From Escherichia coli (lineage in GTDB: Bacteria; Pseudomonadota; Gammaproteobacteria; Enterobacterales; Enterobacteriaceae): DNA of 64,000 nucleotides. Shown here piece after piece: positions 48,918-59,950 of this stretch; position 1 is the stretch's first letter; every line of letters begins with the position of its first letter. Below the pieces are notes generated by a model. That model made no database searches, had not been told where the DNA came from, and saw only the letters and a list, made by a program, of their open reading frames with translations. The translations under genes and the position numbers were made by a program. The stretch lies in assembly GCF_001677475.2 (NCBI RefSeq), contig NZ_CP015229.1; one strand, given 5' to 3'.

Positions 48918-49106
48918 AAAGGCGCCGAAGCGCCTTTCAAATTGATGACAAAGTGCGTTTTTATGCCGGATGCGGCGTGAACGCCTTATCCAGCCTACAA
49001 GATCGTGCAAATTCAATACATTGCAGAGACCATGTAGGCCTGATAAACGAAGTGCATCAGGCAATGTTGAGTTTGTCATCAGCCTCAAAGGCGCCGAAGC
49101 GCCTTT
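48918..49106. repeat. REP/BIME-like cluster: two REP-like palindromic units flanked by two identical 20-bp hairpins AAAGGCGCCGAAGCGCCTTT
   Basis: Identical hairpin copies at 48918-48937 and 49087-49106; REP-like units around 48965-48999 (GCCGGATGCGGCGTGAACGCCTTATCC) and 49034-49062 (GTAGGCCTGATAAACGAAGTGCATCAGGC). Confidence 0.7.
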
Positions 49107-58506: not shown

Positions 58507-58902
<396 letters not shown>

Positions 58903-58943
58903 CACTTTTCGGTTTACTGTGGTAGAGTAACCGTGAAGACAAA

Positions 58944-59128
58944 ATTTCTCTGAGATGTTCGCAAGCGGGCCAGTCCCCTGAGCCGATATTTCATACCACA
59001 AGAATGTGGCGCTCCGCGGTTGGTGAGCATGCTCGGTCCGTCCGAGAAGCCTTAAAACTGCGACGACACATTCACCTTGAACCAAGGGTTCAAGGGTTAC
59101 AGCCTGCGGCGGCATCTCGGAGATTCCC
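58944..59128 (+). ncRNA. ssrS: 6S RNA (SsrS), RNA polymerase-sigma70 regulatory RNA
   Basis: Sequence ATTTCTCTGAGATGTTCGCAAGCGGGCCAGTCCCCTGAGCCGATATTTCATACCACAAGAATGTGG...GGCATCTCGGAGATTCCC matches the 6S RNA sequence as I remember it; ends are approximate to within a few nt. Confidence 0.9.
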
Positions 59129-59201
59129 TTCTTATCTGGCACCAGCCATGACGCAACTACCAGAACTCCCACTGACATTATCCCGACAAGAAATCCGCAA
59201 A

Positions 59202-59750
59202 ATGATTCGGCAACGTCGTCGTGCGTTAACGCCGGAACAACAGCAGGAAATGGGTCAACAAGCCGCTACCCGGATGATGACGTATCCCCCGGTGGTGATG
59301 GCACATACGGTCGCTGTATTCCTCTCTTTTGATGGCGAACTCGACACCCAGCCACTCATAGAACAACTCTGGCGCGCCGGTAAGCGCGTATATCTTCCAG
59401 TTTTGCATCCCTTTAGTGCCGGTAATTTGCTGTTCCTGAATTACCATCCGCAAAGCGAACTGGTGATGAACAGGTTGAAGATCCATGAGCCAAAACTGGA
59501 TGTGCGTGACGTGCTACCCCTTTCCCGATTAGACGTGTTGATCACACCGCTGGTCGCCTTTGATGAGTACGGTCAGCGCCTGGGAATGGGCGGTGGTTTT
59601 TATGATCGGACCTTACAAAACTGGCAGCGCTATCAAATGCAACCGGTGGGTTATGCGCATGATTGTCAGTTGGTGGAAAAACTCCCCGTTGAAGAGTGGG
59701 ATATCCCACTTCCTGCGGTGGTTACACCGTCGAAAGTCTGGGAGTGGTAA
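59202..59750 (+). CDS. fau: 5-formyltetrahydrofolate cyclo-ligase
   Basis: Translation from MIRQRRRALTPEQQQEMGQQAATRMM; the supplied ORF (start 59004) extends back into ssrS and I reject that extension. Confidence 0.85.
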   Translation: MIRQRRRALTPEQQQEMGQQAATRMMTYPPVVMAHTVAVFLSFDGELDTQPLIEQLWRAGKRVYLPVLHPFSAGNLLFLNYHPQSELVMNRLKIHEPKLDVRDVLPLSRLDVLITPLVAFDEYGQRLGMGGGFYDRTLQNWQRYQMQPVGYAHDCQLVEKLPVEEWDIPLPAVVTPSKVWEW

Positions 59751-59810
59751 GGGCGACACACCTGCATCGCCCTGATTGACATCGTTGATTCTTTAACCTA
59801 ATTTAGTGAG

Positions 59811-59950
59811 TAAGGGTAAGGGAGGATTGCTCCTCCCCTGAGACTGACTGTTAATAAGCTGGGAAACTTATGAGTAACAGTACAATCAGTATGATGACAA
59901 GTCGCATCATAACCCTTCTCCTTTAAGCCCTCGCTTCGGTGAGGGCTTTT
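59811..59950 (+). ncRNA. sibC: SibC antisense small RNA (type I antitoxin), cis-encoded opposite ibsC
   Basis: Candidate promoter TTGACA (59776-59781), 17-nt spacer, TAATTT (59799-59804); terminator hairpin AAGCCCTC-gcttcggt-GAGGGCTT plus T-run at 59925-59950; fully overlaps ibsC on the opposite strand; ends approximate. Confidence 0.7.
59851..59910 (-). CDS. ibsC: IbsC small hydrophobic toxic peptide (19 aa), type I toxin
   Basis: Minus strand ATG ATG CGA CTT GTC ATC ATA CTG ATT GTA CTG TTA CTC ATA AGT TTC CCA GCT TAT TAA translates to MMRLVIILIVLLLISFPAY; too short to appear in the supplied ORF list. Confidence 0.8.
   Translation of the reverse strand: MMRLVIILIVLLLISFPAY

Follow-up and report, generated by a model that had tools for sequence, protein, structure and literature searches.

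Translation of fau most likely starts 20 nt downstream of the 6S RNA gene in the zapA-ssrS-fau locus of Escherichia coli

INTRODUCTION

Where does the coding sequence of fau (ygfA) begin behind the 6S RNA gene? The question is raised by a 64,000-nt stretch of Escherichia coli DNA (contig NZ_CP015229.1 of RefSeq assembly GCF_001677475.2), which is called the window here and is numbered from its first letter. A mechanical list of open reading frames (ORFs) gave the fau frame as 59004–59750, with a product of 248 aa. The third in-frame ATG, at 59148, lies 20 nt after 6S, and its product begins MTQLPELPL…. A further ATG at 59202, 75 nt after the 3' end of 6S, would give a product of 182 aa beginning MIRQRRRAL, and this was the start chosen in a sequence-only reading of the window, which passed over 59148.

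The region of the window that contains these codons is the well-known E. coli zapA-ssrS-fau (ygfA) locus. Its operon logic was published between 1985 and 2011; the locus is textbook material, and nothing new on 6S RNA is reported here. In K-12, the binding of 6S RNA to the sigma-70 RNA polymerase holoenzyme and its templating of product RNA are established (PMC3299989; PMC7641849).

It was found that fau most likely starts at ATG 59148, and not at 59202 or 59004, which places the start 54 nt upstream of the curated one. This correction is already known, being present in PGAP annotations and in a ribosome-profiling study of 2016. The explanation as a whole, which combines a 6S locus of the K-12 type, an operon with processing and Rho-dependent termination, and a fau start at 59148, is considered very probable.

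RESULTS AND DISCUSSION

Identity and conservation of the locus

A genome collection search matched the region 58560–59780 in 5425 of 5426 complete E. coli genomes, with an identity of 99.8% for the best match, and zapA, ssrS and fau were annotated under the aligned region in the matching genomes. The core of the region (58930–59260) was at least 99% identical in 5419 E. coli genomes. The whole zapA-ssrS-fau region was absent from one of the 5426 genomes, and in one E. coli genome it sat on a record labelled plasmid.

The strain from which the window derives is not K-12. The K-12 gene order ygfB, zapA, ssrS, fau, sibC/ibsC, serA was found in the window with the same neighbours, and the window shares with the K-12 unit both the promoter-like elements and the C-rich tract that follows 6S. 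The features of the locus are collected in Table 1. The Shine-Dalgarno match of zapA was strong (–7.8 kcal/mol).

The order zapA - ssrS - ygfA/fau, which is conserved at gamma-proteobacterial 6S loci, was present in the window, in agreement with the literature (PMC2848244; PMC4064990; PMC7641849). Rfam, applied at its gathering score to 20 related loci, detected 6S upstream of fau in 19, Pasteurellaceae among them. The remaining locus was that of Colwellia demingiae, with no 6S match within 2.5 kb upstream of the fau homologue; its 6S RNA may be divergent or located elsewhere in the genome. As in the window, 6S lies directly upstream of the cyclo-ligase gene and on the same strand in other gamma-proteobacteria. 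In Coxiella burnetii, for example, 6S RNA maps to the 5' UTR of ygfA, and the linkage is widely conserved (PMC4064990).

Table 1. Coordinates of the features at the zapA-ssrS-fau locus of the window
Feature	Position	Strand	Basis
zapA CDS, 109 aa	58573..58902	+	ORF list; Pfam ZapA PF05164, E 8.6e-21; RefSeq annotation of matching E. coli genomes
Candidate distal ssrS promoter P2 inside zapA (TTGCAA, 17-nt spacer, TAGAGT)	58684..58712	+	Read from the sequence
Candidate proximal ssrS promoter P1 (ATGACA, 18-nt spacer, TAGAGT, extended –10 TG)	58899..58928	+	Promoter scan, 9/12 + TG
ssrS, 6S RNA, 184 nt	58944..59127	+	Rfam RF00013; K-12 identity; RefSeq ssrS annotation at the equivalent position
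Artefactual 5' extension of the 248-aa ORF, covering the 3' two-thirds of 6S and the spacer; not coding	59004..59147	+	
C-rich, G-poor tract, candidate Rho utilisation region	59120..59200	+	C 35–38%, G 13–15% (60-nt windows)
Spacer between the 6S 3' end and the fau ATG, 20 nt, pyrimidine-rich, without Shine-Dalgarno	59128..59147	+	Anti-SD –1.5 kcal/mol
fau (ygfA), 5-formyltetrahydrofolate cyclo-ligase, 200 aa	59148..59750	+	Best-supported CDS
Internal ATG, Met19 of the 200-aa form	59202..59204	+	fau start in the curated K-12 MG1655 record

The 6S RNA gene

The Rfam model RF00013 matched 58944–59127 on the plus strand at 139.8 bits, the gathering score being 46.4 (E 2.2e-28). The match spanned model positions 1–187 of 187 and was not truncated. 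The cmscan alignment filled both strands of the consensus structure across the closing stem, the central bubble and the terminal stem-loop, and one non-canonical pair was flagged per strand. The sequence was 100% identical to ssrS of K-12 MG1655 (b2911), the RNA being without any difference. ssrS of the window encodes 6S RNA, known as a regulator through its binding to sigma-70 RNA polymerase. The sequence-only reading had placed 6S RNA at this position, and the covariance-model search that it had proposed returned the full-length match described above. The 42 nt that it had counted between the end of the zapA stop codon (58902) and the start of 6S were borne out, and all other coordinates and distances that it gave were correct as well.

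The ORF list also contained a 108-aa ORF antisense to the entire 6S gene (58852–59178, minus strand). It was unannotated in every E. coli genome record inspected, and is presumably a further ORF that is open by chance across the gene of a structured RNA.

Conservation of the fau start codon

The fau frame was translated upstream of its conserved part in 68 loci encoding Fau relatives, taken from species-representative genomes. An ATG at the position of 59148 was found in all 67 related loci that were scored. The codon equivalent to 59202 was a start, namely ATG, in just 14 of these loci; the others had CTG, TTA, CTA, CTC, CTT, ATA, ATC, ATT or GTT, or else CAG, CAA, CAC, CAT, ACT, ACC, TTC, TTT or TAC. 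The next ATG, GTG or TTG in these loci came 30 codons further, deep in the domain. At the protein level, all of Escherichia and a few other lineages had Met19; in other genera the residue at this position was L, I, V, F, Q, H, T or Y.

Codon-position entropy was calculated for the 56 loci sharing a common 10-codon N-terminus. Met1 was found in 56 of 56 and Thr2 in 55 of 56, the third position of the Thr2 codon having an entropy of 1.78 bits. Directly before Met19, six codons read R-Q-x-I-R-x, with the first R in 56/56, Q in 55/56, I in 55/56 and the second R in 56/56, and their entropy averaged 0.50 bits at the first, 0.13 bits at the second and 1.13 bits at the third codon position. The stretch 59148–59202 is under protein-type constraint, with variation concentrated at third codon positions. 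Among the enterobacterial loci, the sole change in the distance from the ATG to R13 was an in-frame 6-nt indel specific to Escherichia; three Pasteurellaceae loci had other distances, which were still in frame. Escherichia Fau is 200 aa long compared with 198 aa in other enterics, reflecting a lineage-specific insertion of two codons near the N-terminus.

A divergent allele was observed in E. coli Z1323HEC0477 (NZ_CP148323.1, 917–1513 of locus L073), with 93.6% identity over window positions 58930–59260. Its Fau is 198 aa long and lacks the Escherichia-specific two-codon insertion, which suggests that the allele was imported from another lineage.

The ribosome-binding signal did not separate the candidate starts. 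No Shine-Dalgarno sequence was found before 59004, 59148 or 59202; the anti-SD duplex energy was –1.5 kcal/mol for 59148 and –0.7 kcal/mol for 59202, and the three ATGs ranged from –0.7 to –1.5 kcal/mol.

Family profiles and solved homologues

The product of fau matched PF01812 with 162.3 bits (cut-off 27), TIGR02727 (MTHFS_bact) with 179.1 bits (84.9) and NF007661 with 444.6 bits (343). Residues 13–194 of the 200-aa Fau aligned to positions 1–186 of PF01812. The 182-aa form loses positions 1–7 of both PF01812 and TIGR02727, and covers only positions 17–198 of NF007661, an enterobacterial equivalog model of 198 positions. Full-length matches to NF007661 and TIGR02727 were obtained only with the 59148 start. 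The curated K-12 protein of 182 aa is therefore without the first 16 NF007661 positions, which the 200-aa form restores. From the equivalog-level match, we infer that Fau would carry out the ATP-dependent conversion of 5-formyl-THF to 5,10-methenyl-THF.

Cyclo-ligase family members matched by the Fau of the window included Bacillus subtilis YqgN (PDB 1ydm) and human MTHFS (3hxt). The alignments of 1ydm, 2jcb, 1sou and 3hxt began between residues 3 and 14 of these chains and at query residues 12–14 (E 6e-22 to 7e-16), and all four of these solved homologues, which align over the N-terminus, begin upstream of Met19. The K/R-x-x-L-R sequence of 1sou and 3hxt aligned to R13…R17. Only translation from 59148 gave a complete domain, including the N-terminal K/R-x-x-L/I-R helix. 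In MTHFS, the K/R-x-x-L-R motif probably takes part in the binding of ATP; our literature searches found no structural paper documenting a role of the N-terminal motif in ATP binding.

Ribosome profiling and annotation

Initiation sites in E. coli were mapped by Nakahigashi et al. (2016) by tetracycline-inhibited ribosome profiling (TetRP; PMC4909307). Row 100 of their Table S2 gives a new initiation site at –54 (ATG) for ygfA, in class '1. new site' (PMC4909307), and this site equals 59148. The signals in the three libraries were 150.5, 4.68 and 0.62 at the new site versus 0, 1.75 and 0.33 at the old site, and Table S5 lists a 200-aa ygfA product beginning ATGACGCAACTACCAGAA… (PMC4909307). 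The counts were low, with a strong signal in one of the three libraries, and no N-terminal peptide of ygfA was found in that study (PMC4909307), so that the TetRP support is not conclusive alone. The N-terminal peptide would be (M)TQLPELPLTLSR for the 200-aa form versus (M)IRQR… for the 182-aa form. A full-text search returned no further article tying the ygfA start codon to ribosome profiling, and ygfA/fau was not mentioned in the TRAINSPOTTER or Salmonella riboproteogenomics supplements.

In each of the four assemblies sampled, an independent MG1655 assembly among them, PGAP left 20 nt between ssrS and fau; three of the products had 200 aa and the fourth had 198 aa. The curated record NC_000913.3 (b2912) starts fau at the equivalent of 59202 and was the only record to keep the product of 182 aa. 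In this record, 59148 corresponds to position 3056187 and 59202 to position 3056241.

Five independent lines thus favour 59148: conservation of the start codon, protein constraint on the codons that follow it, profiles and homologues, TetRP, and PGAP annotation. The start at 59202 (MIRQRRRAL) assigned in the sequence-only reading is not upheld, since the comparative, profile and structural-homologue evidence places the start at 59148. The TetRP site at –54 also counts against that reading, in which fau would have no translation upstream of 59202. Its distance of about 75 nt between 6S and fau is correct as a distance to 59202, but because fau starts at 59148, the spacer to the favoured start is 20 nt and not 75 nt.

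Alternative start sites

Among the alternatives, dual initiation in Escherichia survives best, although we consider it unlikely. Translation would begin at 59148 as well as at 59202 and yield the full-length enzyme and an isoform shorter by 18 residues that lacks the conserved R-x-x-I-R motif. The presence of Met19 in all of Escherichia and in a few other lineages would fit such a scheme, as would the low signals at both starts in TetRP libraries S2 and S3 (4.68 vs 1.75; 0.62 vs 0.33), and among genes in general, 22 of the 67 inspected were reported to have dual initiation sites (Nakahigashi et al., PMC4909307). However, the TetRP authors classed ygfA as '1. new site' and not as dual, the counts at its two starts are too low to tell, and 59202 is without a Shine-Dalgarno sequence. 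Because other genera replace Met19 freely, with residues as different as L, I, V, F, Q, H, T and Y, there is no conserved start function at this position. Slightly less likely again, dual starts might be used in Escherichia and in the few other lineages that independently have Met19, the choice between them being linked to 6S 3' end formation and to Rho loading on the spacer and the early coding sequence.

It is very unlikely that fau starts at 59202 only, with a 182-aa product and 59128–59201 as an untranslated leader. The annotation of b2912 in NC_000913.3 from the equivalent of 59202 agrees with this, and two TetRP libraries had a small signal at the old site (1.75 and 0.33). Nevertheless, the 59202 codon is not a start in 53 of the 67 related loci, and the 18 codons upstream of it show the invariant R-Q-x-I-R, third-position wobble and in-frame indels only. 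The family profiles and the four solved homologues start upstream of Met19, TetRP assigned the –54 site to its new-site class, and PGAP annotates the long form of fau. With fau starting at 59148, the curated K-12 start probably drops 18 residues, including four invariant positions of the N-terminal helix of the family, and clones or assays built on the 182-aa annotation may use a truncated enzyme.

The 248-aa ORF from 59004 overlaps 6S by 124 nt (59004–59127), close to the 125 nt estimated in the sequence-only reading. Among the loci compared, the frame was open back to an ATG inside 6S in Escherichia only. In other genera, the near-invariant 3' part of 6S occupied each of the three frames with respect to fau (TKGSRVTACGGISEIP, RRIHLEPRVQGLQPAAASRRFP and NYDDTFTLNQGFKGYSLRRHLGDS), because the spacers between the 6S 3' end and the ATG (14, 17, 18, 19, 20, 21, 22, 23 and 24 nt) differ in length by non-multiples of three, and in-frame stops closed the 6S-derived frame upstream of fau. 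Pfam gave no match in residues 1–60 of the 248-aa product, and the 59004 ATG had no Shine-Dalgarno match. The 248-aa ORF is an artefact and its extension is non-coding. The sequence-only reading had also called this ORF artefactual, with which the frame and stop comparison, the spacer indels and Pfam agree. That it is instead a genuine longer Fau overlapping the 6S gene can practically be dismissed: although the frame is open from 59004 in Escherichia, the extension is confined to that genus, with 6S in another frame or broken by stops elsewhere, its residues 1–60 are covered by no family profile, and its start, which lacks a Shine-Dalgarno sequence and would fall within the 6S RNA fold, is absent from all annotations inspected.

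Promoters, processing and Rho-dependent termination

Two candidate promoters precede ssrS. From the proximal candidate P1, transcription is predicted to start at ∼58935, ∼9 nt before mature 6S. The distal candidate P2 has 8 of 12 consensus positions, which is below the threshold of the promoter scan, and its predicted start is at ∼58719–58720, at ∼–224 from the 5' end of mature 6S. Kim and Lee are said to have placed the ssrS starts in 2004 at –9 (P1) and –224 (P2). The promoters P1 and P2 of ssrS are also described in a passage of PMC12152304.

Co-transcription of ssrS and ygfA has been reported (PMC2848244), and both this co-transcription and the processing of 6S from the transcript are published (PMC2848244; PMC7641849; PMC12152304). 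The sequence-only reading, which had proposed that ssrS and fau are co-transcribed with 6S RNA processed out, matches this published E. coli biology. According to a passage of PMC3299989 that cites Chae et al. 2011, most ssrS transcripts end by Rho-dependent termination inside fau/ygfA; 6S RNA is therefore mostly not cut from a full-length dicistronic mRNA. Maturation of 6S is attributed to RNase E/G and exonucleases in a passage of PMC12152304, with reference to Chae 2011 and Kim & Lee 2004.

The terminator scan found no intrinsic terminator in 59128–59576. A single hit at 59577–59592, inside fau, was within chance expectation. The tract 59120–59200 has the composition expected of a Rho loading site, with a C/G ratio of 2.6 over 59148–59201, and is a candidate for such a site by composition only.

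The following course of events may be proposed for the locus. Two tandem promoters would drive ssrS, P2 from within zapA and P1 from directly behind it, and without an intrinsic terminator transcription would continue into fau. Rho would end most transcripts in or just beyond the C-rich, G-poor tract, and the transcripts ended in this way would be trimmed at both ends to mature 6S, while those that read through would serve as fau mRNA. The AUG at 59148, which has no Shine-Dalgarno sequence, lies inside the candidate Rho loading region, where translation would probably compete poorly with Rho. fau may thus be poorly translated, with an expression that depends on escape from Rho and is low relative to 6S.

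The gap of 20 nt between 6S and fau bears on the interplay of 6S 3' processing, Rho termination and fau translation. This spacer was 14–24 nt long in 63 of 66 enterobacterial rows, rich in C and T, and variable in sequence. Whereas the 6S-fau spacer of Enterobacteriaceae is very short (14–24 nt), it measured 99–125 nt in loci of the Klebsiella type. These were found in Klebsiella spallanzanii, an uncultured Klebsiella and Enterobacter sp. 10-1 (L029 2399–2500, L036 2376–2500 and L049), and the three long spacers share the motif GTATTA(A/C)ACT…GCC. The long spacer of this type may contain an internal fau promoter or another inserted element.

Other elements of the window

A sibC/ibsC type I toxin-antitoxin pair was observed directly 3' of fau, at 59776–59926 on the plus strand and 59851–59910 on the minus strand. 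sibC was matched by the Rfam SIB_RNA model with 138.2 bits, and the antisense toxin ORF of 19 aa translates to MMRLVIILIVLLLISFPAY, which matches the ibsC annotation in E. coli genomes. At a greater distance, the Rfam model ES036 (CssrF) matched 48999–49041 on the plus strand with 40.8 bits, just above its gathering score of 37.6. A tRNA-Gly with the anticodon CCC was found at 2280–2353 on the minus strand by the Rfam tRNA model (71.6 bits) and by ARAGORN, and is presumably E. coli glyU, with which it is consistent.
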